Assembly (NCBI GenBank): GCA_000091165.1
Contig: FP565575.1
Coordinates: 870,001-902,000, forward strand
DNA from: Candidatus Methylomirabilis oxygeniifera
GTDB taxonomy: Bacteria > Methylomirabilota > Methylomirabilia > Methylomirabilales > Methylomirabilaceae
DNA length: 32,000 bases
Reading direction: 5' to 3'
Shown: positions 539 to 32,000 of the stretch, one piece after another
How positions within the stretch are numbered: the stretch's first letter is position 1
Layout: every line of letters begins with the position of its first letter
Made by a program: the position numbers and the translations under genes
The notes under the pieces: generated by a model
Told to the model about the DNA's origin: nothing
Seen by the model: only the letters and a program-made list of their open reading frames with translations
The model's database searches: none

Positions 539-1480
539 ATGATGAATCTTGACGCCGGGCAGATTACGCTCATCGCGATCACGCTCTTTGCGGCTGCCGT
601 CAATGGGGCGCTGGGATACGGGTTTTCATCGCTGACCGTCCCGGTTGCTCTCATCTTTTATTCCAACCGGATCTTAAATCCCGCCCTGGTGTTGGTAGAG
701 GTGGCGCTCAACAGCTACGTACTGCTTGTCAATCGACGGAGCATCCCGAAGATCTGGAAGAGGGTGCTGCCGATCGTGTGCGGTCTCATTCCTGGCGTCA
801 TCGCGGGGAGCTATGCCCTCTCGATGGCAAGTCCGGAATGGCTGAAGCTGATCACGTATCTCATCGTGCTGCCGCTAATCCTGCTGCAGGCGGCAGGGGT
901 AAGACGGCCGATCCGGTCTGAGCGGCTCATTGGCGTGCCGTTTGGCGCCGGTGTCGGCGTACTCTATTCGACAACCACCATCTCTGGTCCTCCGTTGGCG
1001 CTCCTTTTTAACAATCAGGGCTTTGTCAAAGGCGAGTTTCGAGCCGCCCTTGGCATGATCAGAATGGTCGAATCGACCGTCACAGCGACTGCGTATTATT
1101 ACCTTGGAGTGTACACTGCGGGGAGCGTAGGACTCCTGTGGTCGATCGTGCCGAGCGTGGCGATAGGGATCCCGCTGGGGGCCTACGTCATCAGCCAGAT
1201 GAATGCTGAAACATTTCGCAGAATCTGTATGAGCTTTGACGCCTGGGTAGTGGGCTTCGGCTTATCCAAGGTGCTGATCGATCTGAAATTGACGACCAGC
1301 CCGAGTGGTTACATTGTCTGGCTGGCCGTTATCGTGACTGATCTGACGTTACTCTACGGCTTCTTTACGAGGCAGCCTGAGATCCCGGTGGCCGCCTTGG
1401 CGGTCGATGTCCCTGACGGTAGTCCCAGGCTCATACCGCAGAAAACTCCGGCTGTGACCCCGGATGATCTGGCTACGTAA
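539..1480 (+). CDS. TauE/SafE (DUF81) family sulfite/anion exporter-like membrane protein
   Basis: 313-aa polytopic hydrophobic protein with Gly-rich TM segments (AVNGALGYGFSSLTVPVAL, GVPFGAGVGVLYS) typical of DUF81. It sits directly upstream of sulfite reductase. Confidence 0.65.
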   Translation: MMNLDAGQITLIAITLFAAAVNGALGYGFSSLTVPVALIFYSNRILNPALVLVEVALNSYVLLVNRRSIPKIWKRVLPIVCGLIPGVIAGSYALSMASPEWLKLITYLIVLPLILLQAAGVRRPIRSERLIGVPFGAGVGVLYSTTTISGPPLALLFNNQGFVKGEFRAALGMIRMVESTVTATAYYYLGVYTAGSVGLLWSIVPSVAIGIPLGAYVISQMNAETFRRICMSFDAWVVGFGLSKVLIDLKLTTSPSGYIVWLAVIVTDLTLLYGFFTRQPEIPVAALAVDVPDGSPRLIPQKTPAVTPDDLAT

Positions 1481-1528
1481 GTCTATTTCTAGGCCGTTGG
1501 CGGGCGATGAATGATGGAGAGGGTAATC

Positions 1529-3358
1529 ATGAATAATGCGAGCGAACCGGTGGACGCTGAGCAGCCGGCAAACGTTTTAACTCCGACTAATGGACGGATC
1601 AATCAAGAAAAGGCGCAGTCCGCGAACGGGTCGTCCTGGGCCAGTGAGGAGGACATCGACACCTTCGATCAGTTTGTCCGGAGATTTTGGAAGGGGGAGA
1701 TCTCCCCGGACGAATTCAAGCGGTTCCGCCTGCAGAACGGGATCTATGGACAGCGGCAGGAAGGGGAGCAGATGTTTCGGATCAAGATCCCGTGGGGCGG
1801 CCTCAGTGCGGCTCAATTGGAGTTACTCGCCGAGTTGGCGGCGAAGGCTCCGAATGGGGTAGCCCACGTCACGACCCGCCAGAACATCCAGCTTCACTTC
1901 ATCAAGCTCGAGCAGGTAACAGGACTGATGAGGAGCCTGGCCTCGGTCGGCCTGACGACCAGAGAGGCCTGCGGCAACACCGTTCGCAACGTCACGGTCG
2001 GGCACTGCGCCGGGGTCTGTCCTCAGGAACTGTTTGACGTGACCCCGTATGCTGAGACGATTGCGCGATTTCTCCTGCGCAATCCGATGAACCAGAACCT
2101 GCCCAGGAAGTTTAAGATCTCATTCTCCGGTTGCCCCGACGACCTTGGCCTCAGTCCCATGCAGGACATCGGCGCCTGCGCCGCGCTGCGATCTGCGGAG
2201 GGTAAGGAGGAGCGCGGATTTCAGCTCTATGTCGGGGGCGGATTGGGTCCCATACCACGCATCGCGGAGTTGCTTGAGGAGTTTACGTCGGCGGATCGGC
2301 TCCTTCCGACAGTTGCTGCCGTCGTACGCGTATTCGACCGCCTCGGTAATCGCGACGATCGGCACAAGGCCAGGATGAAGTTTGTACTGAACAAGTTGGG
2401 GATCGAGACGTTTCGGGCGTTGGTGTTTCAGGAGCGGACCGGCCTCGAATCCACAATGGCCGGGCAGTTCCCTCCTATTGTCATGTGGGAGAAGGTCCCG
2501 CTTCATCAGGCGCCGTCCGGTTCGACGGGCGCCCCCGTAGAGCCTGACGATTCTGCCTACCGACGGTGGAGGACTACCAATGTTCTGCAACAGAAGCAGG
2601 CCGGGTATACCATGGTCTGTATTCGCCTTGAACTGGGTGACATCACCTCAGCGCAGCTCCGAACCCTCGCCTTTGCGGCGCGCGAGTTCGGCGATGGTGC
2701 CGTCCGCAGCACGAACCAGCAGAACTTCGCTCTCAGGTGGGTTCCGTCCGGGCGCCTGCCTGCGCTCTATCGGGTACTGAGCGCCGTCGGTCTGGCTGCT
2801 CCCGCGGCCGAACGGTTGGCTGATGTGACTGCCTGCCCAGGCGCCGATACCTGCCAACTCGGAATCACCTCCTCCCGCGGCCTGGGCGCCGCTCTGGGAG
2901 CGCTTTGCGATGATGAACTGAAGGGTCTGGCGGATGAGACGGGGATTCGGATCAAGATCTCCGCCTGTCCAAACTCTTGTGGTCAGCATCATCTTGCAGA
3001 CATCGGACTGTATGGCGGCGCCAAAAAGTTCAACGGTCAACAGGTGCCGACCTACGAGATGTTGCTGGGCGCGAGGTTGACGCCTGGCCAGGCGAGCTAT
3101 GCCAAACCGGTAGCGCGGATTCCGGCAAAGAATGTTCCGGGCGCGGTGGAGGCGGTCCTCCTGCACTATCAGAAAGAGCGACAGGATGGGGAGTCGTTCG
3201 GCAGCTTTTTGGATCGGCGTGGGTTGGAGTCCGCAAAGACGGTTCTGGCGCCGTTCACAGAGCTGCCGCCGGCCTCCGAGGCGCCGGATCAGTATCTTGA
3301 CTACAATGCTGAAGAGGCGTTTTCCATTCATGTTGGTCCCGGCGAGTGCGCCTCGTAG
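1529..3358 (+). CDS. sir: Ferredoxin-dependent sulfite reductase (nitrite/sulfite reductase family, siroheme/4Fe-4S)
   Basis: It carries the Cys-cluster motifs TACPGADTCQLG and ISACPNSCGQHH, characteristic of the siroheme-[4Fe-4S] site. The NIR_SIR repeat architecture is duplicated. It is in one operon with cysH and sat. I placed the start at ATG 1529, behind GGAGAGG; the ORF is open from 1511. Confidence 0.85.
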   Translation: MNNASEPVDAEQPANVLTPTNGRINQEKAQSANGSSWASEEDIDTFDQFVRRFWKGEISPDEFKRFRLQNGIYGQRQEGEQMFRIKIPWGGLSAAQLELLAELAAKAPNGVAHVTTRQNIQLHFIKLEQVTGLMRSLASVGLTTREACGNTVRNVTVGHCAGVCPQELFDVTPYAETIARFLLRNPMNQNLPRKFKISFSGCPDDLGLSPMQDIGACAALRSAEGKEERGFQLYVGGGLGPIPRIAELLEEFTSADRLLPTVAAVVRVFDRLGNRDDRHKARMKFVLNKLGIETFRALVFQERTGLESTMAGQFPPIVMWEKVPLHQAPSGSTGAPVEPDDSAYRRWRTTNVLQQKQAGYTMVCIRLELGDITSAQLRTLAFAAREFGDGAVRSTNQQNFALRWVPSGRLPALYRVLSAVGLAAPAAERLADVTACPGADTCQLGITSSRGLGAALGALCDDELKGLADETGIRIKISACPNSCGQHHLADIGLYGGAKKFNGQQVPTYEMLLGARLTPGQASYAKPVARIPAKNVPGAVEAVLLHYQKERQDGESFGSFLDRRGLESAKTVLAPFTELPPASEAPDQYLDYNAEEAFSIHVGPGECAS

Positions 3359-3421
3359 TGGTTGGATGAAGCTGAGCGCTGTTTGCTGAACGCTTTTTTC
3401 AAGAGCATAAGAGGAGAGAGC

Positions 3422-4402
3422 ATGCGAAGACAGATCGTCACGCCGGTCCTGTGGATAGTTGGACTGGCGTTAGCAGCAGGAGTCGCGTGGATTGACCAGG
3501 CGTGGGCGTACGAAGCCTGGGTCACGAATCAGGAAGATCATACCGTTATCGTGATCGATACCGAGACGAACAAGGTGATTGATACGATTACGCCAGGCGG
3601 TAAGAAGCCGCATAATGTTGCTTTCTCGCCGGATGGCGTCCATGCCTTTATCGCGAACGCCGCATCCAACGATGTGAGCATGGTCGACGTAAAGACGAGG
3701 AAGCTGGTTGCCACACTGCCTGCGGGAATCAGAGCCCATGGTCCGGCGGTCTCTCCGGATGGGCGGCAGCTCTGGGTGGCGAACCCGGGATCCAATGACG
3801 TGACGGTCATTGATCTGGAGGGGCGACACACGATCGATACGATCGCGGTAGGAAAGGCTCCCGCACTTATCGTCTTCGACCCGAAGGGCGTACGGGCCTA
3901 TGTCAGCAACGGGGGCTCTGGAGATCTGTCGGTGATCGACGTGAAGAGTCGAAAGATCGTCACGACGATCGAAGCCGGTCGAGGCGCCATGGGGACCGAC
4001 GTGACCTGGGACGGCAAACTCCTGTTGGTCACAGCAGGAGATGTAGATCAAATCGACGTCATTCATCTCGTGAATCATCAGGTTGCGGCACGGATTCCCC
4101 GCGATGGCGAGCCTCATGGCCTGGTGATCTCGCCTGACGGCAAGCGGGCGTATGTGGCCAATCGTAAGGCTAATGTCGTGTCGGTCATTGACTGCAAGGC
4201 GTTGAAGATCGTCAAAGATATTCCGGCAGGCAAGCGGATCGACATCGTGACGATCACGCCTGACGGCCGTCGGCTCTACGTGACCAGCCGTGACACAAAC
4301 AGTGTCATTGTCATCGATACATTGACGGATAAGATTGTCGCTGAGATCCCGACAGGAAAAGATCCGCATGGGATCGCCATACTCCCTGCGAGTCATCACT
4401 AA
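3422..4402 (+). CDS. Secreted YVTN-family beta-propeller repeat protein
   Basis: It has about seven repeats of roughly 40 aa, for example PHNVAFSPDGVHAFIANAASNDVSMVD, AHGPAVSPDGRQLWVANPGSNDVTVID, PHGLVISPDGKRAYVANRKANVVSVID and IDIVTITPDGRRLYVTSRDTNSVIVID. The N-terminus is signal-like (MRRQIVTPVLWIVGLALAAGVAWIDQAWA). An AGGAGAG RBS precedes ATG 3422. Confidence 0.8.
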   Translation: MRRQIVTPVLWIVGLALAAGVAWIDQAWAYEAWVTNQEDHTVIVIDTETNKVIDTITPGGKKPHNVAFSPDGVHAFIANAASNDVSMVDVKTRKLVATLPAGIRAHGPAVSPDGRQLWVANPGSNDVTVIDLEGRHTIDTIAVGKAPALIVFDPKGVRAYVSNGGSGDLSVIDVKSRKIVTTIEAGRGAMGTDVTWDGKLLLVTAGDVDQIDVIHLVNHQVAARIPRDGEPHGLVISPDGKRAYVANRKANVVSVIDCKALKIVKDIPAGKRIDIVTITPDGRRLYVTSRDTNSVIVIDTLTDKIVAEIPTGKDPHGIAILPASHH

Positions 4403-4481
4403 ACTATACGTGTATCAGTCGATTGCAACACCTTATGCAGTGATGGGCATGAAAGTCCGAGGGGGACTCCCGCGTCGCGTT

Positions 4482-4571
4482 GTCATTGCGAGCGACCAAC
4501 GGGAGCGCGGCAATCTTACCGTCGTAGTCCTAAAAGACTGTGGGATTGCTTCGGCTTCGCCTCGCAATGAC
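4482..4571. repeat. REP/MITE-like extragenic palindromic element
   Basis: Outer inverted repeat GTCATTGCGAG (4482-4492) / CTCGCAATGAC (4561-4571), with a nested GCAATC/GATTGC pairing. It lies in the intergenic gap between the YVTN gene and cysH. Translating across it gives the junk peptide (VIASDQRERGNL...ASPRNDM) typical of such repeats. Confidence 0.6.
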
Positions 4572-4663
4572 ATGGGAGACTTTCGAAGTAATGATATGGT
4601 CGTAATCGGGCGTAGAACTGCGTGAACCGTGTATGCATTCATGTGTTCCAACAAGGAGGAATG

Positions 4664-5449
4664 ATGGCAGGAGAATCGGGAGTGCAGAGTGTGAATCAAG
4701 GAAGTGGAACGTTGTCTGCGGAGGAGGTGGCTGAGCTGAATCGACGACTTCGCGGCGCCACGCCGGAGGCCGTGCTTCGATGGGCGATCGATACGTTCGC
4801 CCCGAAACTGGCGCTCGCCAGCAGTTTTGGGGCTGAAGATATGGTGTTGATCGATATGCTGTCGAAGCTTCAGCCACCGATTACGATCTTTACCCTGGAC
4901 ACCGGACGGCTGCATGAAGAGACGTACGACGTAATGGAGCGGACCCGGGAACGGTACAAGGTGACGATTGAGAGCTATTTTCCGGGGCGAGACGCCGTAG
5001 AGGCGTTGGAGCGAGAGCGCGGGTTTTATTCCTTCCGGCAGAGTGTCGAAGATCGAAAGTTCTGTTGTCGCGTTCGAAAGGTGGAGCCGCTGGGCCGGGC
5101 GTTGAAGAGTGTTGACGCATGGATCACTGGGCTTCGGCGGGAGCAGGCGGCGACCCGCACCGCGATCGACATCGTGGAAATCGATGCGAGCCATGGCTCA
5201 ATCCTCAAGATCAACCCTCTCGTCGAGTGGACCGAGCCGCAGGTCTGGGCATATATCCGCGAGCACGATGTGCCCTATAACGCCCTCCATGATCAGGGAT
5301 TCCCCAGCATCGGTTGCTCACCATGCACGCGGGCTATCAAGCCTGGTGAAGATGTGCGGGCGGGACGATGGTGGTGGGAAAACCCCGAGACCAAGGAGTG
5401 CGGGTTACATCTCGACAGCCGGCATGGCGATCACGGTAAAAGCAGCTAA
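4664..5449 (+). CDS. cysH: Adenosine 5'-phosphosulfate (APS) reductase, Fe-S type (CysH family)
   Basis: The Cys-Cys pair (KFCCRVRKVEPL) plus CxxC (GCSPCT) is the 4Fe-4S signature of APS-specific reductases. The C-terminal catalytic ECGLH motif is present. An AAGGAGGA RBS lies just upstream of ATG 4661/4664. Confidence 0.9.
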   Translation: MAGESGVQSVNQGSGTLSAEEVAELNRRLRGATPEAVLRWAIDTFAPKLALASSFGAEDMVLIDMLSKLQPPITIFTLDTGRLHEETYDVMERTRERYKVTIESYFPGRDAVEALERERGFYSFRQSVEDRKFCCRVRKVEPLGRALKSVDAWITGLRREQAATRTAIDIVEIDASHGSILKINPLVEWTEPQVWAYIREHDVPYNALHDQGFPSIGCSPCTRAIKPGEDVRAGRWWWENPETKECGLHLDSRHGDHGKSS

Positions 5450-5482
5450 GGCGAGGGGTCGATCTTAACGGGAGAGCAAATA

Positions 5483-6676
5483 ATGGCGGAATCGAAAGAA
5501 CTAACGGAGAATGAGGCGCTGACGCCGATCCTTCCGCATGGCGGGCGGCTCGTCTCGCGGGTACTGACAGGAGAGGCCAGGGCCGACGCGATCGGCAGAG
5601 CGCGAGATCTTCCGATGATCTCGTTGAACGCGAGGGCCATCTCGGACGTGGAATGCCTGGCCACCGGTGTGTTCAGTCCGCTCGAAGGGTTTATGAATCG
5701 AGCCGACTATGAGGGCGTAGTCCATGAAATGCGCCTGAAGAGCGGCATACTATGGACGTTGCCGATCACCTTGGCGGCGCCCAAGGATGATGTGGCTGGG
5801 CTCAAGCAGGGAGGCGAGGCGGCCTTACTCGGCTCGGACGGCGAACTGCTTGGTCTGCTTTCGGTGGAGGAGATTTTCCCTTATGATAAGCGAGCGGAGG
5901 CATGTCTGGTCTACAGCACCGAAGAGACGCGCCATCCGGGCGTCCAATACCTCTATCAGCGAGGCGATCTCCTGATAGGCGGTGCGGTCAGCCTGGTCCG
6001 GCCCCCGACGCTGCCTGGATTCGAAGACTATTACTACGTACCGACTGAGACGCGGCGGCAATTCAAGGAGCGCGGATGGCAGACCATCGTCGGGTTCCAG
6101 ACTCGCAACCCGATTCATCGATCGCACGAATACATTCAAAAGTGCGCGTTGGAGTTGATGGACGGTCTGCTGATCCACCCGCTGGTCGGTCGGACCAAAC
6201 TTGACGACATTCCATCGGAGATCCGCCTTCGTTGCTATCGCGCGCTTGAGGAACGTTACTTCCCGAAGGATCGCGTGATGCTGAGCGTGTTTCCCGGCGC
6301 GATGCGATATGCGGGCCCACGGGAGGCGGTCTTCCATGCTCTGGTCAGAAAGAATTACGGCTGCACCCACTTCATTGTTGGGCGGGATCCCGCTGGAGTC
6401 GGGGGCTACTACCATCCGTACGCAGCCCGTGACCTTTTCCTGCGGCTGAATCGCAATGAACTGGATATCACCCCGCTTTTCTTCGACGAGGCATTCTTCT
6501 GTCGTCGCTGCGATGGGATGGCGTCGGCCAAGACCTGCCCGCACGACGCTTCCGAGCGGGTTACGTTGAGCGGGACGCGCGTTCGCGAGCTCCTTCGGAG
6601 CGGCGAGCCGCTGCCGGAGGAGTTTACACGACCGGAGGTCTCGGAGATCCTGGCGGAATGGATGCAGGGAGTATAA
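5483..6676 (+). CDS. sat: Sulfate adenylyltransferase (ATP sulfurylase, homo-oligomeric type)
   Basis: It has the QTRNPIHRSHE (HxxH) and GRDPAGVG motifs diagnostic of ATP sulfurylase. Length is 397 aa. Confidence 0.9.
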   Translation: MAESKELTENEALTPILPHGGRLVSRVLTGEARADAIGRARDLPMISLNARAISDVECLATGVFSPLEGFMNRADYEGVVHEMRLKSGILWTLPITLAAPKDDVAGLKQGGEAALLGSDGELLGLLSVEEIFPYDKRAEACLVYSTEETRHPGVQYLYQRGDLLIGGAVSLVRPPTLPGFEDYYYVPTETRRQFKERGWQTIVGFQTRNPIHRSHEYIQKCALELMDGLLIHPLVGRTKLDDIPSEIRLRCYRALEERYFPKDRVMLSVFPGAMRYAGPREAVFHALVRKNYGCTHFIVGRDPAGVGGYYHPYAARDLFLRLNRNELDITPLFFDEAFFCRRCDGMASAKTCPHDASERVTLSGTRVRELLRSGEPLPEEFTRPEVSEILAEWMQGV

Positions 6677-7757: not shown

Positions 7758-7885
7758 CCTTTTCATCCAGAGTGGCTGAGGGACTGGCCCTGCGAAGCCA
7801 CGGCAACCGGTTTGCGGTTCACACCGGCAAACAGTGGTGCCAACTCCTACATCCCAGACACAGGGCGGGATGAGAGATGAGAAGG
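7758..7885 (+). promoter_or_regulatory. SAM-I (S-box) riboswitch aptamer
   Basis: P1 pairs CCTTTTCATC (7758-7767) with GATGAGAAGG (7876-7885). The conserved core is present: AGAGTGGCTGAGGGACTGGCCCTGCGAAGCCACGGCAACC ... GGTGCCAACTCC ... AGAGATGAGA. Confidence 0.9.
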
Positions 7886-24837: not shown

Positions 24838-25281
24838 GCCGAAGTCGGTCGGATGGCCGCCGGTTCACCTCTGGTGAACGGGAGGAAAGTCCGGACTCCA
24901 CAGGGCGGGGTGCTGGGTAACGCCCAGGGAGGGTGACCTCACGGATAGTGCCACAGAAAAGATACCGCCCACGCTGCATCATCGGCCGCCAGGCTTCGCC
25001 GCAAGCGCAGCCGAGCGGCCCCGTGGGTAAGGGTGAAAAGGTGCGGTAAGAGCGCACCAGCGGCATGGCGACATGTCGGCTTGGCAAACCCCACTCGGAG
25101 CAAGGCCAAATAGGTCCCGCCGTATTATGCAGAGAGCGGCCCGCTCTCGTGCTCCTTTCGGGGCAGGCGGGACGGGTAGGCTGCTTGAGCCCGATGGTAA
25201 CGTCGGGCCTAGAGGAATGGCCATCCGGTTGGGCCGCAAGGTCCGGCCGCACAGGATCCGGCTTACAGACCGACTTCGGCC
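24838..25281 (+). ncRNA. rnpB: RNase P RNA, bacterial type A
   Basis: P1 pairs GCCGAAGTCGGTC with GACCGACTTCGGC. The universal core is present: GGGAGGAAAGTCCGGACTCCACAGGGC, GGTAACGCCCAGG, GTGCCACAGAAAA, GGTAAGGGTGAAAAGGTGCGGTAAGAGCGCACC, AGCAAGGCCAAATAGG, GGGTAGGCTGCTTGAGCC, CCTAGAGGAATGGCCATC and ACAGGATCCGGCTTACAG. Confidence 0.95.
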
Positions 25282-25738: not shown

Positions 25739-25960
25739 CTAGGGACGCCAGATCCATTTTCCATGAATCCGTTCCATTCGCCGCGCCATCATATATCCAG
25801 TCCATAGCAGTCCCCAGAAGACCCCAACACACCCCAAAAAGAAAAGCCAGTGGCCGACAAGAAACGCCGGGATCATTCCCAATACGAGGCTCACCACAGA
25901 CAGAATCGCGGCGAGTAGCCGGAAGTTTCGCTCCACGCTCAATTTTCGCTCTTCGTTCAT
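25739..25960 (-). CDS. Small (73-aa) two-TM membrane protein, unknown function
   Basis: MNEERKLSVERNFRLLAAILSVVSLVLGMIPAFLVGHWLFFLGCVGVFWGLLWTGYMMARRMERIHGKWIWRP. A strong GGGAGGTG RBS lies 9 nt before ATG 25960. The overlapping 117-aa alternative frame looks non-coding. Confidence 0.5.
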   Translation of the reverse strand: MNEERKLSVERNFRLLAAILSVVSLVLGMIPAFLVGHWLFFLGCVGVFWGLLWTGYMMARRMERIHGKWIWRP

Positions 25961-26092
25961 AACTGTAGTCACCTCCCAAAACAAACCGCGTTGACCACCA
26001 TGGCTAAGTTGGTTGTTGCAACGGAATCGGCACTCATTGGACACCGGAGGTATCTCTCAAGACGGGTAGACTTCGCAACCATTTGGAACCAT

Positions 26093-26169
26093 TGGCGTCC
26101 CCAACGGGATTCGAACCCGTGTTTCGGCCTTGAAAGGGCCGCGTCCTGGGCCGGCTAGACGATGGGGAC
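26093..26169 (-). tRNA. tRNA-Glu (anticodon UUC), CCA encoded
   Basis: The reverse complement folds as GTCCCCA TC GTCT AGCCGGCCCA GGAC G CGGCC CTTTCAA GGCCG AAAC ACGGG TTCGAAT CCCGT TGGGGAC G CCA. It closely resembles E. coli tRNA-Glu. Confidence 0.95.
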
Positions 26170-26227: not shown

Positions 26228-26608
26228 TCACAAGATTCTGTTGCGGTGGATAATGACCTCTACCCGGCCGCGGTCGTTAATGAGGAGATTCAAGAGACCG
26301 CTGATCAGACTTATCAGAATAGCCCCGAACACGGCGGACCAGAAGCCCTGCACCTCGAATCCTCGGATCATTAACGAGACGAGTTTCAGGAGAGCGGCGT
26401 TGAGCAGCGGGATAAACAGCCCCAGCGTTATAATTGTGAGTGGAAGCGTCAGAATCAGGATCACAGGTCGTACAACGGCGTTGACTATCCCGAGGAAAAA
26501 GGCTGCAGCCAGCGCGGGAAGGACGCCTCGCACCGCGATGCCGGGGATGACGGTCGATACGAGTAAGAGGGCCAGCGCATTAAGAACAAGGCGGATGAGA
26601 AATCCCAT
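26228..26608 (-). CDS. DUF360 / 'phage holin family IV'-like 4-TM membrane protein
   Basis: MGFLIRLVLNALALLLVSTVIPGIAV.G...A..LGIVNAVVRPVILILTLPLTIITLGLF matches the YvlD/DUF360 pattern as I remember it. A GAGGTG RBS lies 6 nt before ATG 26608. The gene starts 21 nt downstream of the FAAL stop. Confidence 0.6.
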   Translation of the reverse strand: MGFLIRLVLNALALLLVSTVIPGIAVRGVLPALAAAFFLGIVNAVVRPVILILTLPLTIITLGLFIPLLNAALLKLVSLMIRGFEVQGFWSAVFGAILISLISGLLNLLINDRGRVEVIIHRNRIL

Positions 26609-26629
26609 CAATCGCACCTCAGGGTTATG

Positions 26630-28528
26630 CTAACCGAACTCGCCCCGGAGAAACCGTTCTCTGGTGTCGAGCCGCATCCGTTTTCCGCTGGTGGTTTTGC
26701 TGAGGGTTCCTGGTGCGACCAGCAGCACATGGTCAAGTACCGTGCCGCCTGCCGGCCGATAGACGTCATCCACGCGGGAGCGGATCTCTCGCAGTAAGGC
26801 CTCATGGAGCGGTGCATGGCGGTGCGGATCGGCCAGCTCAACCACCGCCACCACCCGCTGAGTTCCGGATCTGGCGTCGGTGACGCCGAAGACGATGCTT
26901 CGACCCGGCCTGACCCCCTCAACGGTTTCTATGACCTCTTCGAGATGGGCCGGGGCATAGTTGCGGCCCCCCTTGATCACGATCTCCTTTAACCTCCCGG
27001 TGATGTATAGCTCTCCTGCCGAGTCGATCGTCCCCTCATCACCGGTGTGCAGCCACCGTCGTCCGTCTCGTTCTCGGATTACCTGCGCGGTGGCCTCCGG
27101 GTCTCCAAAATATCCGTCCATCAGGCTTGGTCCTGTCACGATTACCTCGCCAAGGCGCCCGATCGGGAGCTGGTTGCCTTCGGTGTCAATGATTCGAATG
27201 TCAAAATCCTGGAGCGGCCGTCCCACAGATACCCACTCCTCGCCCCGCTGTCTGCAGACCCGATAGGGTGCTGTGAGGTCCGGGAAGGAGACGGCGAGCG
27301 CCATCTCGGCCAGCCCATAGACCGGTGACAAGGCTTCCCGACGAAGTCCGAACTGCTCGAACTCGCGTTGGAACGCTTCCATCGCCTGCACAGTAACCGG
27401 TTCAGAGCCGTTCATCAGGATTCGAAGGCGGGAGAGGTCAAGACGGCTCCCCTGTCCATGGGCCGGCGAGTGCGCAAACCGTCTGGGCGCGATCCGACAC
27501 ATTCTGGCGAGCCGTCCGATAGCGGAGTTGTTGGCGACTGAGACTGTGGCCTTGAACTGATGGATCGCCCACATCCAGCGGATTGGATCGCGGGTAAAAT
27601 CAGTGGGCGACATCAGGCAGGCTTCCATGCCGAGGGCAAAGGATCCCAGCGTAATGCCGATGAGCCCCATGTCATGGTAGAGCGGTAACCAGGAGACTAC
27701 CTTGTCGTCCGGTCGCGGCTGTACCGCTTGCCCGAACGCCCGGATGTTGGCTAAGATCGCTCGGTGGCTGAGCACGACACCCTTCTGAATACCGGTTGAT
27801 CCGGAAGTAAATTGGATCAGAGCCGTGGCATTGCCATCAACGCTCGGCGACCGAAACTGAGCGGTTCCTCGCAGGAGGTCGGAGGCCGGCACAAAGGCAG
27901 GCGGCTCACGAAGGAGCCGGGCAGCAGCCTGACACACGGGACCGAACTCTCGCTCGGCGATTACCACGGTAGGTCGGGAGGTCTGGCAGACATGGACCTG
28001 CTGGTCCACGTACCGGCTGAGGCGCTGAAGCTGCTCCAGGAGAGTCATGAGAGGCCGTCCCGCGTTTCGCCCCTGTCGCCAGCGTTGAGCGAAAGGCTGT
28101 TGCACGAGGCGGTCGATCACCCATTTGGCGGGGGCGTACAGGCCGGTGGTGGTCGCTGCGGCCAGGGTGCGAAGCAGGCCTTTCGGGAGAAGCAGGGGCG
28201 GATACGTGGGAACCGCTACCGCACCCGCCAACCAGGTACCGAATAAGGCTTGAAGGATGGGCCGCCCGGTGGGAAGCATGATAAGGACCCGATCTCCCGG
28301 CCGGACCCCCAGTTCCTGAAGGAGCGCCGCCACCCGCTCGGCCTCCTGGCACAACATGCCGAACTGGATCGGCTCGTCGGTGTCAGGACCGCGGAGTAGC
28401 GAGCACCAGGGCCTCTCCATGCGATATTCCGCCTGGTAATGAACGATCTGGCCAATCGTATCCGAGGCTGTGAGAGCGGCTAGTGGAGAGGGGTCGAGAG
28501 ATTCACAATAAGTGGAGGAGATAGTCAC
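26630..28528 (-). CDS. Fatty acyl-AMP ligase (FAAL)-like adenylate-forming enzyme
   Basis: It has the AMP-binding core LIQFTSGSTGIQKGVVLSH. The FAAL-typical motifs SWLPLYHDMGLIG and ITGRLKEIVIKGGRNYAPAHLEEVIE are also present. Length is 632 aa. Confidence 0.8.
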   Translation of the reverse strand: MTISSTYCESLDPSPLAALTASDTIGQIVHYQAEYRMERPWCSLLRGPDTDEPIQFGMLCQEAERVAALLQELGVRPGDRVLIMLPTGRPILQALFGTWLAGAVAVPTYPPLLLPKGLLRTLAAATTTGLYAPAKWVIDRLVQQPFAQRWRQGRNAGRPLMTLLEQLQRLSRYVDQQVHVCQTSRPTVVIAEREFGPVCQAAARLLREPPAFVPASDLLRGTAQFRSPSVDGNATALIQFTSGSTGIQKGVVLSHRAILANIRAFGQAVQPRPDDKVVSWLPLYHDMGLIGITLGSFALGMEACLMSPTDFTRDPIRWMWAIHQFKATVSVANNSAIGRLARMCRIAPRRFAHSPAHGQGSRLDLSRLRILMNGSEPVTVQAMEAFQREFEQFGLRREALSPVYGLAEMALAVSFPDLTAPYRVCRQRGEEWVSVGRPLQDFDIRIIDTEGNQLPIGRLGEVIVTGPSLMDGYFGDPEATAQVIRERDGRRWLHTGDEGTIDSAGELYITGRLKEIVIKGGRNYAPAHLEEVIETVEGVRPGRSIVFGVTDARSGTQRVVAVVELADPHRHAPLHEALLREIRSRVDDVYRPAGGTVLDHVLLVAPGTLSKTTSGKRMRLDTRERFLRGEFG

Positions 28529-28538
28529 GATACTTCCT

Positions 28539-29630
28539 TTACGGGTGATGAGTAAGGTTCCTGACGCACCGTCGGCGTTTCGGGATAACGATCTTGTGGG
28601 GGTTGGCGTCGGCTAACGCAATCATCTCACTGATGGCCCAATCCCTCTGGGAGAGGCTTGCCTTCCGGGGATATGCTGTGCCTCCGAGGCGTTCAATACC
28701 TCGAATGATTCCGATAGGGATTGGTAGCGTTCCGTCGGTTGCGCAAACCTCGGCCAGCGAACCCGCTAGCGCCAGATAGGTCGAGAGGAATCGATGCGGC
28801 CAAGTGAATGAGCGGCTTCGTCTCATTTGGAAGACGGCGTACAGGAAGCCGCCCCAGCAAAAATGCGAAATACTGATTGTTTTGTGAACCCAATCGAGAA
28901 ATGCGAGGACCGTTTTGAGATGGACGCGTTCCCGTGGACTACTGGATCTGCCAAGGCCGACAAGAAGAGTCCACTCGATGAGCTCCCGCCACGGTTCCAG
29001 AAGTGTCCCGGTATGCCGGCAAAGACCGGTTAGGTTTCCTTGGAAGCTGTAAATATCTTGGTAGTGCCAGGATTCCCCTCCTTCGGTGGAACGATTCAGT
29101 AGCCAGGCTCGGAATCCCAACGTCATTGCTTTCTGCAGGAATCTTTGATCAACGTCGTTATGAGAGGCTCTGAGAAAAGCCTTATATGCTCGGCACAACA
29201 TCCGGTCACCGTGAGGCAGCCGAGATTGCTCTAGCGCGCGACTGATGACCTGGTCCCCAGCCAGCATGATGCCATTTACATGGGTTAGGCCTCGCAATAT
29301 GAACGGGCGCCAAATCACGACGATTTCCAAGTTGGTCAGGAACTCTAGTGATATAAGTGTCTGTACGGAGGTGTTTCGAGTGGTCAAAATCTTCGTGATA
29401 TCGCTAAATCTTGGTACGATAACGAACAGATCGTAGTCACTGGCCATTCGGAGGCCATCTTGTCCCAACTGCCCTTCGCCGTACGCGAGACTTCCGGAGA
29501 GGACGACTGACGCACGGGGTACAGTATCCAGCAGGATCTCGGTAATTGTTTCCAGCTCGATCCGAATCCGAGCGTGGGACTGCGGACTCTCATCAAGGCA
29601 AAATCGGTGACGATCGTCCAGAAGAAGCAT
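28539..29630 (-). CDS. Pol-beta-type nucleotidyltransferase-fold protein, otherwise uncharacterised
   Basis: The N-terminal motif VVLSGSLAYGEGQLGQDGLRMASDYDLFVIV fits hG[GS]-x(9-18)-DxD of minimal NTases. The remaining ~270 aa have no motif I recognise. The gene is tightly coupled to its neighbours, with gaps of 3 and 10 nt. Confidence 0.5.
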   Translation of the reverse strand: MLLLDDRHRFCLDESPQSHARIRIELETITEILLDTVPRASVVLSGSLAYGEGQLGQDGLRMASDYDLFVIVPRFSDITKILTTRNTSVQTLISLEFLTNLEIVVIWRPFILRGLTHVNGIMLAGDQVISRALEQSRLPHGDRMLCRAYKAFLRASHNDVDQRFLQKAMTLGFRAWLLNRSTEGGESWHYQDIYSFQGNLTGLCRHTGTLLEPWRELIEWTLLVGLGRSSSPRERVHLKTVLAFLDWVHKTISISHFCWGGFLYAVFQMRRSRSFTWPHRFLSTYLALAGSLAEVCATDGTLPIPIGIIRGIERLGGTAYPRKASLSQRDWAISEMIALADANPHKIVIPKRRRCVRNLTHHP

Positions 29631-29633
29631 TAT

Positions 29634-30737
29634 CTAGTTACCTGCCATTTTACTCGATTGAAACGATTGACTGCGTACGGTGTCGGCATGCCACGGACAT
29701 CGGCTCCGCTCCCACTCGGATGCAAATGCCCCAATAGTGGCGCAACGAACCGGGGCGACCGCGCTCACGGTATCAAGGAACCGTGCGAGTCGCTCCGTTC
29801 GAACGGATCCGCGATCATGCCCAAACGGACTCGGGAACCCTTCTACGAACTCCCACGGATGTACCAGCAAGACCAGGGTGATGGGGACGCTCGCAAGCGC
29901 GCTTACCGCAATGAGGTCTTGCAGGACTGACTGTGTTCGTGTTGTTTGTTGTATGAAACGATATGGGTGGTGTGATCGAAGGGATGGTCGAGGCTCTACA
30001 GAGACGGGTATCTCGATAAGTCGGTGTTGCGGAAGAGTGTCCCGTAGCCGAGTCAGAGGTCTGCCCGGATTACGGTGCGCCGGGGTTGATAGATACCCGA
30101 AAAGTTGATTCGGAAGCGAGGAGTCAACAAGAAATCCTGCATTTGTTACTGCTGCAGCACTCTGCGAATCAATGTGAAGGAAAGGAGCGCGGAAGGCGCG
30201 TATCGGGACGCCCACGAGGTCCTCAAGCATCTCTTTCGCCTTCCGAACCGTGTCCTCTTTCTCCGTCCTCCCATAAACGGTTGGAGGGCGAGGAATCGTG
30301 TCATCGATCCGGTAAGGGCCCCCATAACTCTCATGTGCCAGGCCGTGACACCCTATCTCATGCCCGCGTCGCGCCACCTCAAGCACCGTGTCGCCAGCCA
30401 AACGGGCCAGGATACCTTCGGTGAAGAAGGTCCCGCGGACTCCATGAGCGTCCAGGAGATTCAAGAGAGATGGGAGGCCCTCCTCAATGCCGCGGAGAGT
30501 TCGCGTATCCCAGGAACCTGCCTCCCAAGGAGGATCGAGTTCGAGATCGCAAGTGAAGATCAGTGAGATCGTCTCCTGACCGGACGGTTTCTTTGAAGTG
30601 TGCGTCCGAATGAAACAGCCTCTAAGGAGCTGCAGCCACCAGTGTGGATTCACATAGGCATTTCCATAAGGCTGCCAGATCGTTAGGGCGCGAAGATTCC
30701 GTTTGATCTCGCGTAGACGGACATTGAGAGATCTCAC
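29634..30737 (-). CDS. Polysaccharide deacetylase (NodB-homology / CE4-like) family protein
   Basis: The order of CE4-like motifs is FTCDLE (Asp motif), GHEIGCHGLAHE (His motif) and FRAPFL (RxP[YF]). It has a GTG start behind AAGGCG and an N-terminal extension of ~55 aa. Confidence 0.65.
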   Translation of the reverse strand: MRSLNVRLREIKRNLRALTIWQPYGNAYVNPHWWLQLLRGCFIRTHTSKKPSGQETISLIFTCDLELDPPWEAGSWDTRTLRGIEEGLPSLLNLLDAHGVRGTFFTEGILARLAGDTVLEVARRGHEIGCHGLAHESYGGPYRIDDTIPRPPTVYGRTEKEDTVRKAKEMLEDLVGVPIRAFRAPFLHIDSQSAAAVTNAGFLVDSSLPNQLFGYLSTPAHRNPGRPLTRLRDTLPQHRLIEIPVSVEPRPSLRSHHPYRFIQQTTRTQSVLQDLIAVSALASVPITLVLLVHPWEFVEGFPSPFGHDRGSVRTERLARFLDTVSAVAPVRCATIGAFASEWERSRCPWHADTVRSQSFQSSKMAGN

Positions 30738-30860
30738 ATTAATCGCCTTGAGTGCAGTATATAGTATCGCACTGGATTCTCAGGAGCAAGAACCTGAACG
30801 GGACCTAAAGATCACCGTGATCCTTTCTGCCATCGCCTGATCGAGGACTACAAGACTCTC

Positions 30861-32000
30861 TCAATGCGGCTGTGCGAGAACGGCCGGGTAAGGAGCTATA
30901 GGGAAGCACCCGTCATTAAGCAGCTCGGCGTATACCGCCTCTGCGCGATCTACCATCGTTTCGAACTTGAAGCACTCCAGGGACCGGTTTTGGCTCAGTC
31001 TGGCTCGGGCGGCAGCCGCTGTAGGATCCGACAGTACCGCAAGGATGCCGCCGGCGAGTGCGGCAGCGTCTCCCGGCGGGACCAGGACTGCGCCGTTCGC
31101 AACAATCTCAGGTATGCCGCCCACGGTGGTCGCTACGATCGGAGTCCCGGCTGCCGCTGCCTCCAGCACTACATACGAAAATACCTCGGATAAGGATGGG
31201 ATAACGATGACATCGGTTTCAGCGTACAATTTCGCCAGGTGAGACCGCGGTCGAAAGCCGATGAACCGAGTTATCCTCATTAGCCCCAGGGAGGTACACA
31301 ATTGCTCGAGTGCGGGCCGATAGGGACCATCGCCCGCTATCGTGATGATCAGGTCCGGGAACGCTCGACGAATCTGAGGGATCGCTTCGAGTAGATACTG
31401 CACACCCTTGCCCGCTACCAGTCGACCCACATACAGCAGATGAGGACCAGGTTGTCCAAACCGAGGTTCTCGTGGACGAAGAGCGAAGTTGTTTTGTGGA
31501 AGACCATGCGGGATAACTACGATTCGATCGGTGGGAAACCCGGACTCTCTCAGGCTCCGCGCGAGCGTGCTGCTGGGGGCGATAAACCGGGCAACCCCCT
31601 GGAGAAGATGCCGACGTGCTCTCCATGCTCTACGGAGAACGAGGTTCACAAACGGTACAGGAAGGCGAACCCCCATCTTGTCCCTGAGTCCTCGCGCCAG
31701 ACAAGGCGCACAGATCTCCGATGCGTAGCGTTGGCGACAACTCCCGTCCTCATTGTAACAGAGCTGTTGGCGGAGGCAGACCGGCCAATAGGTATGCAGC
31801 GTCGCGAGTACAGGGATCCGGAGGCGGTTCGCCGCGGCAATCGGTGCAAATGAAAGATTGAAAAAGGAGTGCAAATGGACGATATCAGGAGGCCAAGCGC
31901 GGAAAATGCGAAGGGTTGAAAGATATACGACTGGATCAAATTGGAAAAGTTTCGTCAGCAAAATCGGGAAGGCAGTCTTCGTTGAGAAGATTGCCTCGAC
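30861..32000 (-). CDS. GT4-family (GT-B, retaining) glycosyltransferase, 5'-partial
   Basis: The C-terminal domain carries an EX7E-type signature (PSLSEVFSYVVLEAAAAGTPIVATTVGGIPEIV). The reading frame stays open upstream of the track's TTG (…VEAIFSTKTAFPILLTKLF) to the window edge, so the N-terminus lies outside the window. Confidence 0.8.
   Translation of the reverse strand, partial: VEAIFSTKTAFPILLTKLFQFDPVVYLSTLRIFRAWPPDIVHLHSFFNLSFAPIAAANRLRIPVLATLHTYWPVCLRQQLCYNEDGSCRQRYASEICAPCLARGLRDKMGVRLPVPFVNLVLRRAWRARRHLLQGVARFIAPSSTLARSLRESGFPTDRIVVIPHGLPQNNFALRPREPRFGQPGPHLLYVGRLVAGKGVQYLLEAIPQIRRAFPDLIITIAGDGPYRPALEQLCTSLGLMRITRFIGFRPRSHLAKLYAETDVIVIPSLSEVFSYVVLEAAAAGTPIVATTVGGIPEIVANGAVLVPPGDAAALAGGILAVLSDPTAAAARARLSQNRSLECFKFETMVDRAEAVYAELLNDGCFPIAPYPAVLAQPH

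Follow-up and report, generated by a model that had tools for sequence, protein, structure and literature searches.

The window analysed here is a stretch of 32,000 nucleotides from Candidatus Methylomirabilis oxygeniifera (M. oxyfera in the following; contig FP565575.1, positions 870,001 to 902,000). Its last part carries a cassette of five genes, which encode a glycosyltransferase of family GT4, a deacetylase of family CE4, a 363-aa protein with a nucleotidyltransferase (NTase) fold, an adenylate-forming ANL enzyme and a small PF04020 membrane protein. The reading preferred here, to which a rough probability of 0.35 is given, is that the cassette is a self-contained unit restricted to Methylomirabilis that works on the cytoplasmic side of the inner membrane and there builds and tailors a glycoconjugate, a lipidated aminosugar being the most likely product. 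The cassette can be described as a lineage-restricted variant of known biosynthetic logic. What sets it apart is an apparent acyl donor that is an adenylating enzyme without a carrier protein, the derived loss of an insertion in this enzyme, and an undescribed NTase-fold family linked to glycosyltransferases.

Methylomirabilis species (phylum NC10) perform nitrite-dependent methane oxidation, have an unusual envelope and are not available as pure cultures. A lipid or glycoconjugate specific to this genus would be a candidate biomarker and a clue to the unusual envelope. In addition, the ANL enzyme is a natural member of the fatty acyl-AMP ligases (FAALs) that lacks the FAAL-specific insertion, appears to keep most of the other features that reject coenzyme A (CoA) and has no adjacent acyl carrier protein (ACP), making it a ready test of the role of the insertion and of whether FAAL-type enzymes can acylate acceptors other than carrier proteins. 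Glycosyltransferase fusions recur in the rare NTase-fold family and point to a glycan-modifying activity that is as yet uncharacterised. Apart from these two findings, the locus is one more orphan cluster of common enzyme families.

Arrangement and conservation of the cassette

The features of the cassette and its borders are the following (positions in the window).

30861 to 32000 and beyond, minus strand: GT4 (GT-B fold, retaining) glycosyltransferase, opens the cassette; of its 1302 nt, the 1140 nt of the 3' part lie in the window
29634-30737, minus strand: CE4 (NodB-fold) deacetylase, 367 aa, PF01522
28539-29630, minus strand: Pol-beta-type NTase-fold protein, 363 aa, assigned by motif and structure matches
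29430-29501, minus strand: predicted NTase catalytic core, residues 44-67 (LSGSLAYGEG...SDYDL), alignment columns invariant or nearly so
26630-28528, minus strand: ANL enzyme of the FAAL clade, 632 aa, assigned by PF00501 and PDB matches
27224-27283, minus strand: site of the missing FAAL-specific insertion, residues ~416-435, between motifs A5 (YGLAE) and A6 (GEV)
27959-28192, minus strand: extra N-terminal-domain segment of the ANL enzyme, specific to the lineage, residues ~113-190, from the alignment to 7r7g
26228-26608, minus strand: PF04020 (DUF360, 'holin 4_2') protein with four transmembrane (TM) segments, 126 aa, last gene, assigned by Pfam
30761-30789, minus strand: sigma-70-like element TTGCTC-17 nt-TACTAT in the GT4-CE4 spacer, read directly from the sequence
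26093-26169, minus strand: tRNA-Glu(UUC), downstream boundary marker outside the cassette, found by ARAGORN and Rfam

The five co-directional open reading frames (ORFs) occupy 26228-32000 in the order GT4, CE4, NTase-fold, ANL and PF04020, with intergenic gaps of 123, 3, 10 and 21 nt. The last gap applies to the ATG start used in public assemblies; an upstream GTG start at 26617 gives a gap of 12 nt and a PF04020 protein of 129 aa. The GT4 frame is open through base 32000, and the gene is truncated by the window end; in full it has 1302 nt, encodes 433 aa and starts 162 nt past the window end (L001:6367-7668). The tRNA-Glu gene lies on the same strand, 58 nt downstream of the cassette end. The initial annotation had described five packed minus-strand genes with these gaps and a tRNA-Glu neighbour, and all of this was reproduced from the ORFs. 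Its five family assignments stand as well. PF04020, PF00501, PF01522 and PF00534/PF13439 score above their gathering cut-offs; PF01909 scores below, and the NTase assignment depends on motif and structure matches instead of Pfam.

The cassette has a narrow distribution. Only 12 close homologues of the 363-aa protein were found in 5.8 billion protein clusters. When one genome per GTDB species was scanned for this protein, a single further species was recovered (a Ca. Methylomirabilis metagenome-assembled genome), and a metagenome scan with the alignment of close 363-aa homologues gave three more short loci. The same five-gene order is present in every related contig that extends far enough (L004-L010 and L017-L019), all of which are Methylomirabilis-like. 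Identities to the M. oxyfera proteins are 63-67% for GT4, 67% for CE4, 54% for the 363-aa protein, 78% for ANL and 81% for PF04020, the last for the orthologue in L005, and the PF04020 gene always comes next after the ANL gene. Because the order recurs in independent contigs at 54-81% identity, the arrangement is not due to chance. The concern that the five genes might not be syntenic in any other genome was thereby removed when the gene neighbourhoods were mined. As far as the searched databases show, the module is restricted to Methylomirabilis-like bacteria, and the pairing of CE4, ANL and PF04020 genes with the NTase family is specific to Methylomirabilis.

The surroundings of the module differ between relatives. 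In L005, tRNA-Glu is not downstream of the cassette. In L004 and L007-L010, an ATP-grasp gene stands directly upstream of the GT4 gene as a sixth cassette gene (L004:2554-3765, L007:3243-4499, L008:207-1418 and L009:996-2252). The ATP-grasp proteins of the relatives have 403-418 aa, their genes lie 17-19 nt ahead of GT4, and they match PF02786 with 24.5 bits, with weak CPSase-like and RimK/LysX-like matches. In L006, methyltransferase, GT2 and GNAT genes are located upstream of GT4, together with a 50-aa remnant of an ATP-grasp C-terminus (L006:3673-3819). No ATP-grasp gene was found when it was sought near the M. oxyfera cassette. The initial annotation is silent on this gene, which the relatives carry upstream, outside the reach of the window. 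Since the five genes are constant and the flanks differ, the cassette is a conserved module in a variable setting, and the ATP-grasp ligase at the front of some cassettes suggests that the scaffold is decorated differently between species. As a separate observation, the CE4 gene of L004 (L004:5182-6271) is in two frames, with tblastn pieces at 5212-5754 and 5747-6271 and a called product of only 209 aa; either the assembly contains a frameshift here or the gene has become a pseudogene in the lineage of L004.

The flanks beyond the window were read on the 118-kb Methylomirabilis_oxyfera_contig_583, which encodes an identical ANL protein, as do two other assemblies. Upstream of GT4, on the opposite strand, a gene for a 148-aa hypothetical protein is followed by DUF218, bactofilin and ClpB genes. 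Downstream of the cassette are tRNA-Glu, a small membrane ORF, RNase P RNA, an epimerase gene and glnE/glnA/glnB. No ACP (PF00550), polyketide synthase (PKS) or nonribosomal peptide synthetase (NRPS) was found in the genes called up to 10 kb to each side or in the larger ORFs of the window. Exosortase, PEP-CTERM, flippase, Wzx/Wzy, ABC exporter and polymerase genes are also absent within 10 kb of the cassette, and exosortase, flippase and polymerase genes are absent from the window. Over this range, the orphan status that had been claimed for the cassette is upheld. The initial annotation had allowed that the flanks might reveal a standard exosortase/PEP-CTERM or O-antigen/exopolysaccharide (EPS) locus, which would have removed the novelty; as the flanks consist of divergent housekeeping genes, this objection does not apply. 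An ordinary fatty-acid-degradation context, which had been raised in the same way, is not seen in the surrounding genes either.

No terminator-like sites were found within the cassette, and an Rfam search gave no RNA element there. The 123-nt GT4-CE4 spacer is conserved in length, and the hexamers TTGCTC...TACCAT/TACTAT are conserved in six orthologous spacers. A promoter consensus scan gave a weaker match overlapping the TTGCTC-17-TACTAT element, which may serve the last four genes as an internal promoter.

Base composition is uneven along the cassette. The GC content of the NTase gene is 0.538 and that of the CE4 gene 0.564, compared with a mean of 0.589 for the other genes; the lower values that had been noted by eye for these two genes are thus true but modest. 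At third codon positions (GC3), the NTase (0.585), CE4 (0.560) and GT4 (0.587) genes are low relative to 0.676 +/- 0.043 for the other window genes, and the ANL (0.700) and PF04020 (0.677) genes are ordinary. This split goes along with the weaker sequence conservation of the GT4, CE4 and NTase genes. The accessory origin that had been suggested from the GC content finds little backing: low GC3 is seen only in the GT4, CE4 and NTase genes, and because the module is old within the genus, it says little about recent transfer.

The same data could be explained by two functionally separate units that lie side by side, a glycan unit (GT4, CE4 and NTase-fold) and a lipid unit (ANL and PF04020), linked by genome history. 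The GC3 values of 0.56-0.59 for the first three genes and 0.68-0.70 for the last two agree with this, as do unequal evolutionary rates (54-67% versus 78-81% identity) and the remote NTase homologues described below, which pair with glycosyltransferases and never with ANL, CE4 or PF04020 genes. However, the gap between the NTase and ANL genes is 10 nt, without a terminator-like site, and this junction is retained in every relative even though both flanks vary between species. Two separate units are given a small probability.

The ANL and NTase-fold enzymes

The ANL enzyme matches PF00501 with 207.6 bits, above the gathering cut-off, and its best PDB matches are all FAALs (7r7g, 3kxw, 3pbk from E. 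coli, FadD32 and FadD23; E 1e-58 to 1e-42). None of the NCBIfam models reaches its cut-off on this protein. The top model is PRK07768, named as a CoA ligase (315 bits, cut-off 572), the FAAL model PRK09192 scores 302 bits (cut-off 600), and the exosortase-associated ligase TIGR03098 scores 129 bits against a cut-off of 592. The adenylation motifs are all intact, the A10 lysine (SGK) among them, and the orthologues share them.

FAALs have a specific insertion of ~20 aa between motifs A5 and A6 (PMC8460268, PMC12820801). The alignment check for this insertion that had been advised by the initial annotation was performed, and the insertion is missing. At the A5-A6 site, the cassette enzyme is 18, 19 and 17 residues shorter than 7r7g, 3pbk and 7wua, respectively, and 15-19 residues shorter than its nearest non-NC10 relatives (P0078-P0084), which retain the segment and are 40-47% identical across the C-terminal part. 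The deletion is common to the cassette orthologues. As the nearest non-NC10 relatives have kept the insertion, its loss is derived and specific to the cassette enzyme.

Other features by which FAALs reject CoA are the bulky residues W224, M231 and F279 (EcFAAL numbering) and a FAAL-specific helix (PMC8460268). In sequence alignments, the cassette enzyme retains the WLPxYHDMGL region with W224, P226 and M231, and its segment for the FAAL-specific helix is equal in length and similar in sequence (SPTDFTRDP versus RTQDFAMRP). The F279 position is occupied by Ile, beside a 2-aa insertion. The label FAAL that had been given to this enzyme is therefore appropriate for its clade and agrees with W224, P226, M231 and the helix segment, and is undercut as a plain label by the missing insertion. 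The N-terminal domain is also different. Homologues were searched with the N-terminal and C-terminal halves separately, and the search with the N-terminal 235 aa returned only NC10 proteins. When residues 112-221 are compared with residues 97-152 of 7r7g, the stretch between the aligned blocks is about 54 aa longer, and this extra segment is conserved in L004 and L005.

Typical bacterial FAALs have been reported to be always accompanied by PKS, NRPS or ACP partners (PMC8460268). The statement that no such partner is visible for the cassette enzyme holds for the 10-kb flanks as well as for the window. With the insertion lost, the missing ACP is less odd; an ACP encoded elsewhere in the genome may also serve the enzyme. 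The contexts of the outgroup enzymes are related to lipids and polyketides. One outgroup ANL gene adjoins genes for a type III PKS, a methyltransferase and an FAD enzyme. The nearest non-NC10 ANL gene (L021:4498-10813) is part of the series LpxB, DUF374, ACP, ketoacyl synthase, LpxD-like hexapeptide acyltransferase and ANL, with split ORFs, and from its gene content this cluster resembles a fatty-acid supply dedicated to the acylation of lipid A. These outgroup contexts support an ancestral role of the enzyme in activating fatty acids for the synthesis of lipids or glycolipids. The L021 cluster also adjoins genes for an MsbA-like ABC transporter and a PMT/ArnT-like protein.

On the 363-aa protein, PF01909 gives 17.6 bits, under its cut-off of 21, with the predicted catalytic core matching profile positions 2-46, and the weak match is seen in only 4 of the 26 family members. 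A profile search of 1.84 billion representatives returned 52 relatives (clusters). In an alignment of 26 homologues (about 20-60% identical to the window protein), G46, E52, D65 and D67 are invariant, S47 and S64 nearly so, and position 102 is usually E or D. A P-H-K motif is conserved at the C-terminus, and the window protein ends in N-P-H-K. By its sequence, the G-S...D-x-D pattern corresponds to the hG[GS]...[DE]h[DE]h signature of Pol-beta-type NTases, and the motif predicts a catalytically intact member of the NTase superfamily.

The AlphaFold2 model made from a multiple sequence alignment with remote homologues has a mean predicted local distance difference test score (pLDDT) of 89.7 and a predicted template modelling score (pTM) of 0.88; with close homologues only, the pLDDT was 44 and the model was not usable. 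The model consists of an N-terminal alpha/beta domain and a large helical C-terminal domain. A Foldseek search against the PDB gave no match at E <= 1e-3, the best E being at least 0.03. Weak as they are, the top matches all belong to NTases (Cid1, Hailong HalB, ANT(9), a structural-genomics NTase and a CD-NTase), and over the whole chain the spectinomycin adenylyltransferase ANT(9) matches best (6XZ0; probability 0.98, TM-score 0.35 by query and 0.47 by target). ANT(9), Cid1 and HalB share with the 363-aa protein a Pol-beta NTase domain at the N-terminus, with G-S...D-x-D, and a helical domain at the C-terminus. Compared with ANT(9) and other Pol-beta NTases, the C-terminal domain of the 363-aa protein is much larger, it has its own P-H-K motif, and the protein is associated with glycosyltransferases. 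A Foldseek search of the model against viral structures found nothing, and PDB sequence searches with the protein or the family profile gave nothing meaningful. With Pfam and structure matches not reached, the 363-aa protein belongs to no described family. Kinship to the PF14907 nucleotidyltransferase, a neighbour of a remote homologue, was considered and rejected, as a profile comparison with hhalign was negative.

The fold named in the initial annotation is thus correct, and the family is more informative than its label of unknown function assumed, being linked to glycosyltransferases. Of the ten long family members tested, eight are GT2 glycosyltransferase fusions, with both domain orders represented, and another is fused to a B12/radical-SAM domain. 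One GT2-fusion member is followed by another GT2 gene downstream. A stand-alone remote member overlaps GT2 genes on both sides in a glycosyltransferase-rich cluster (L015:1-14314), and another remote member adjoins SPASM, SDR, GT87, flippase and PMT_2 genes. The neighbourhoods were read on contigs that are long enough, several remote homologues being on short ones, and where the context is readable, the remote homologues are never paired with ANL, CE4 or PF04020 genes. Because fusion to and adjacency of glycosyltransferases recur, the NTase family is functionally tied to glycosyl transfer. As a side observation, the L015 cluster also holds PqqD, the PF14907 nucleotidyltransferase, an HPr-kinase-like-GT2 fusion and radical SAM/SPASM genes, a set that recalls the tailoring clusters of modified peptides (ribosomally synthesised and post-translationally modified, or lasso-type, peptides).

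An NTase fold and a membrane protein of a family classed as holins could also suggest an anti-phage or conflict system, in which the NTase would make a nucleotide signal and the holin-like 4-TM protein would be the effector. The Hailong HalB and CD-NTase folds among the Foldseek matches and a match of the GT4 protein to PF20706, 'GT4 in conflict systems' (36 bits), are in line with this. However, the PF20706 match ranks beneath much stronger generic GT4 matches, the gene for the 632-aa ANL enzyme separates the NTase and membrane genes, CE4 and ANL enzymes are foreign to such systems, and none of the five cassette proteins is matched by PADLOC models. The defence explanation was rejected on this last result and is regarded as highly improbable.

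Proposed pathway and alternatives

The GT4 protein matches PF00534 (129 bits) and PF13439 (72 bits), both above cut-off, and has an E-x7-E motif (EVFSYVVLE) in its full-length form. Its matches to NCBIfam equivalogs are generic, the best being TIGR03088 (114 bits, cut-off 409), MshA (85, cut-off 462) and BshA (80, cut-off 274), and none of the cut-offs is reached. N-acetylglucosamine (GlcNAc), which had been suggested as the donor, receives no support from these scores (80-114 bits against cut-offs of 274-462). The N-terminal domain of GT4 carries a Cys-rich insert, WPVC-x5-LC...GSC...IC-x2-C (residues ~125-155, window 31640-31730), of which 4 cysteines are conserved in the L007 orthologue; judging from the sequence, it may be a metal-binding insertion, which would be unusual for GT4.

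The CE4 protein matches PF01522 with 52.5 bits (cut-off 23.1), and its best PDB match is the polysaccharide deacetylase 3rxz (E 9e-11). The motifs TCDLE, HEIGCHGLAH (H-x3-H), RAPF and LLVHPWEF are invariant in six orthologues, motif 1 being a D-x-E variant and not D-D. Among NCBIfam models, the best is TIGR03006 with 64 bits (cut-off 276), and the NodB equivalog TIGR04243 scores 22 bits (cut-off 240). None of the four soluble cassette proteins has an N-terminal hydrophobic segment. The CE4 protein has neither a signal peptide nor an N-terminal TM segment and is therefore probably cytoplasmic. The PF04020 protein scores 102.9 bits against a cut-off of 28.8, with hydrophobic peaks along the whole protein; nothing in the present data supports a holin function.

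In the proposed pathway, whose order of steps is presumed, GT4 would glycosylate an acceptor, a lipid or a small molecule, with an N-acetyl (or O-acetyl) sugar. The cytoplasmic CE4 enzyme, a deacetylase by family, would strip this acetyl group from its presumed substrate in a NodB-like manner. The ANL enzyme, which is competent by its motifs, would adenylate a carboxylic acid, probably a fatty acid, and pass the acyl group to the product, presumably either directly to the freed amine or via an ACP encoded elsewhere. Both of these routes are possible because the insertion is lost and no carrier protein is encoded in cis. The NTase-fold enzyme, with its catalytic motif, could transfer a nucleoside monophosphate or a phospho-group to the glycoconjugate or a precursor of it, at a hydroxyl or a phosphate, and the 4-TM PF04020 protein might, more speculatively, anchor or translocate the product. 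The sequence of glycosylation, deacetylation and re-acylation that had been proposed earlier is plausible in the light of the families, packing, synteny and motifs; of the points that came with it, the plain FAAL label is undercut, the GlcNAc donor is unsupported and the accessory origin is weak.

The closest working analogue is the Nod-factor core NodC/NodB/NodA of rhizobia, in which a cytoplasmic glycosyltransferase, a cytoplasmic CE4 N-deacetylase and fatty N-acylation of the freed amine are combined. The logic of the steps is the same, and the deacetylase family PF01522 is common to both. The use of CE4 in place of LmbE or LpxC, which had been presented as new, is only half new, since NodB itself is a CE4 enzyme. 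In contrast to the Nod core, the cassette has a GT4 where NodC is a GT2 enzyme, has no NodA or NodF-like ACP, uses an ANL enzyme as acyl donor and contains additional NTase-fold and PF04020 genes. In lipid A (LpxA/C/D), teicoplanin, tunicamycin, mycothiol (MshA/B/C) and bacillithiol (BshA/B/C) synthesis, an N-acetyl aminosugar is likewise installed and deacetylated, after which the amine is re-acylated or ligated. These pathways differ in their families, using LpxC- or LmbE-type deacetylases, acyl-ACP or acyl-CoA transferases and Cys ligases, and their equivalog models are not reached here. FAALs such as 3PBK, FadD32 and the cyanobacterial 7R7G share the WLPxYHDMGL region, the length of the helix and the adenylation motifs with the cassette enzyme, which differs from them in lacking the insertion, in having Ile for F279 and a longer N-terminal domain, and in having no ACP, PKS or NRPS neighbour. 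A search of the literature on Methylomirabilis glycolipids and on clusters of a glycosyltransferase, a deacetylase and a FAAL found nothing relevant.

Several points weigh against this pathway. Most CE4 enzymes act on polymers outside the cytoplasm. To our knowledge, it is not established for this clade that a FAAL-type enzyme can form an amide directly. The generic GT4 matches leave the donor sugar, the acceptor and the acid without a name, the role given to the PF04020 protein is a guess, and no expression or product data for the cassette were found in the literature. The promoter-like element in the spacer and the GC3 split leave room for two transcription units. In addition, deletion of the insertion in studied FAALs gave only weak reactivity with CoA (PMC8460268).

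A more far-reaching version of the pathway is that the ANL enzyme is a carrier-independent amide (or ester) synthetase that lipidates the deacetylated aminosugar directly, and that the 363-aa protein founds a family of glycan-modifying NTases (e.g. for nucleotidylylation or transfer of a phospho-substituent), the two jointly making an envelope glycolipid specific to Methylomirabilis. This combination is unlikely.

The cassette could instead tailor a surface polymer that is made elsewhere, such as an EPS, a capsule or an envelope glycan, by adding a side sugar, deacetylating it partially and acylating it via an unlinked ACP. It would then be a stripped-down analogue of the GT4, CE4 and AMP-ligase set of XrtA/PEP-CTERM EPS loci, in which the same three enzyme families co-occur. 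The best NCBIfam models for GT4 and CE4 are indeed the XrtA families TIGR03088 and TIGR03006, and the ANL enzyme matches TIGR03098, but the scores of 114, 64 and 129 bits are far below the cut-offs of 409, 276 and 592. CE4 enzymes usually act on polysaccharides, and remote NTase homologues occur in glycan clusters with flippase, GT87 and PMT_2 genes, both of which fit tailoring of a polymer. The cassette enzymes, however, have no signal peptides, and no exosortase, PEP-CTERM, Wzx/Wzy, ABC exporter, polymerase or other export genes are located near them. Furthermore, no glycans were seen on the S-layer protein of M. lanthanidiphila (PMC8671808), which weakens glycosylation of the S-layer as a function. 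Tailoring of a surface polymer is considered fairly unlikely.

The product could also be a soluble aminosugar conjugate similar to mycothiol or bacillithiol. In this case, GT4 would make a GlcNAc-glycoside of a small acceptor, CE4 would deacetylate it, and a ligase (the ANL enzyme, plus the ATP-grasp enzyme in relatives) would amidate it with a non-fatty acid, yielding a redox buffer, a compatible solute or a chelator. The combination of GT4, deacetylase and ATP-dependent ligase follows this logic, the enzymes are all cytoplasmic as far as the lack of N-terminal hydrophobic segments shows, and the ATP-grasp genes upstream of GT4 in L004 and L007-L010 and the GNAT gene upstream in L006 are in line with it. 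GT4 matches MshA and BshA weakly (85 and 80 bits), without reaching their cut-offs of 462 and 274 bits. The cassette also differs from the two pathways in using CE4 instead of LmbE and in having no MshC or BshC. The ANL enzyme has the FAAL-type WLPxYHDMGL signature and its nearest relatives are found in lipid contexts, M. oxyfera has no ATP-grasp gene nearby, and the scheme gives no role to the membrane and NTase-fold proteins. A soluble conjugate is considered improbable.

Other features of the window

The remainder of the window is housekeeping, with genes for sulfate assimilation, a SAM (S-adenosylmethionine) riboswitch with an enzyme dependent on pyridoxal phosphate (PLP), IspH, LamB/YcsF and carboxyltransferase-domain genes. 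The region 539-6676 is an assimilatory sulfate reduction cluster that encodes a TauE/SafE exporter-like protein, a NIR_SIR sulfite reductase, a beta-propeller protein, a PAPS/APS (phosphoadenylyl/adenylyl sulfate) reductase and ATP sulfurylase. The SAM-I riboswitch (7760-7883, plus strand, 85.6 bits) is located upstream of the gene for the PLP-dependent enzyme (PF00291; 8137-9450, plus strand), which has a short NinF-like match at its N-terminus. A class A bacterial RNase P RNA is present at 24841-25281 on the plus strand (298.8 bits), where spurious long ORFs overlap it on both strands. Just past tRNA-Glu, a 101-aa hydrophobic ORF (25739-26044, minus strand) is gene-called in public assemblies and has only weak UbiA- and DUF4191-like matches.

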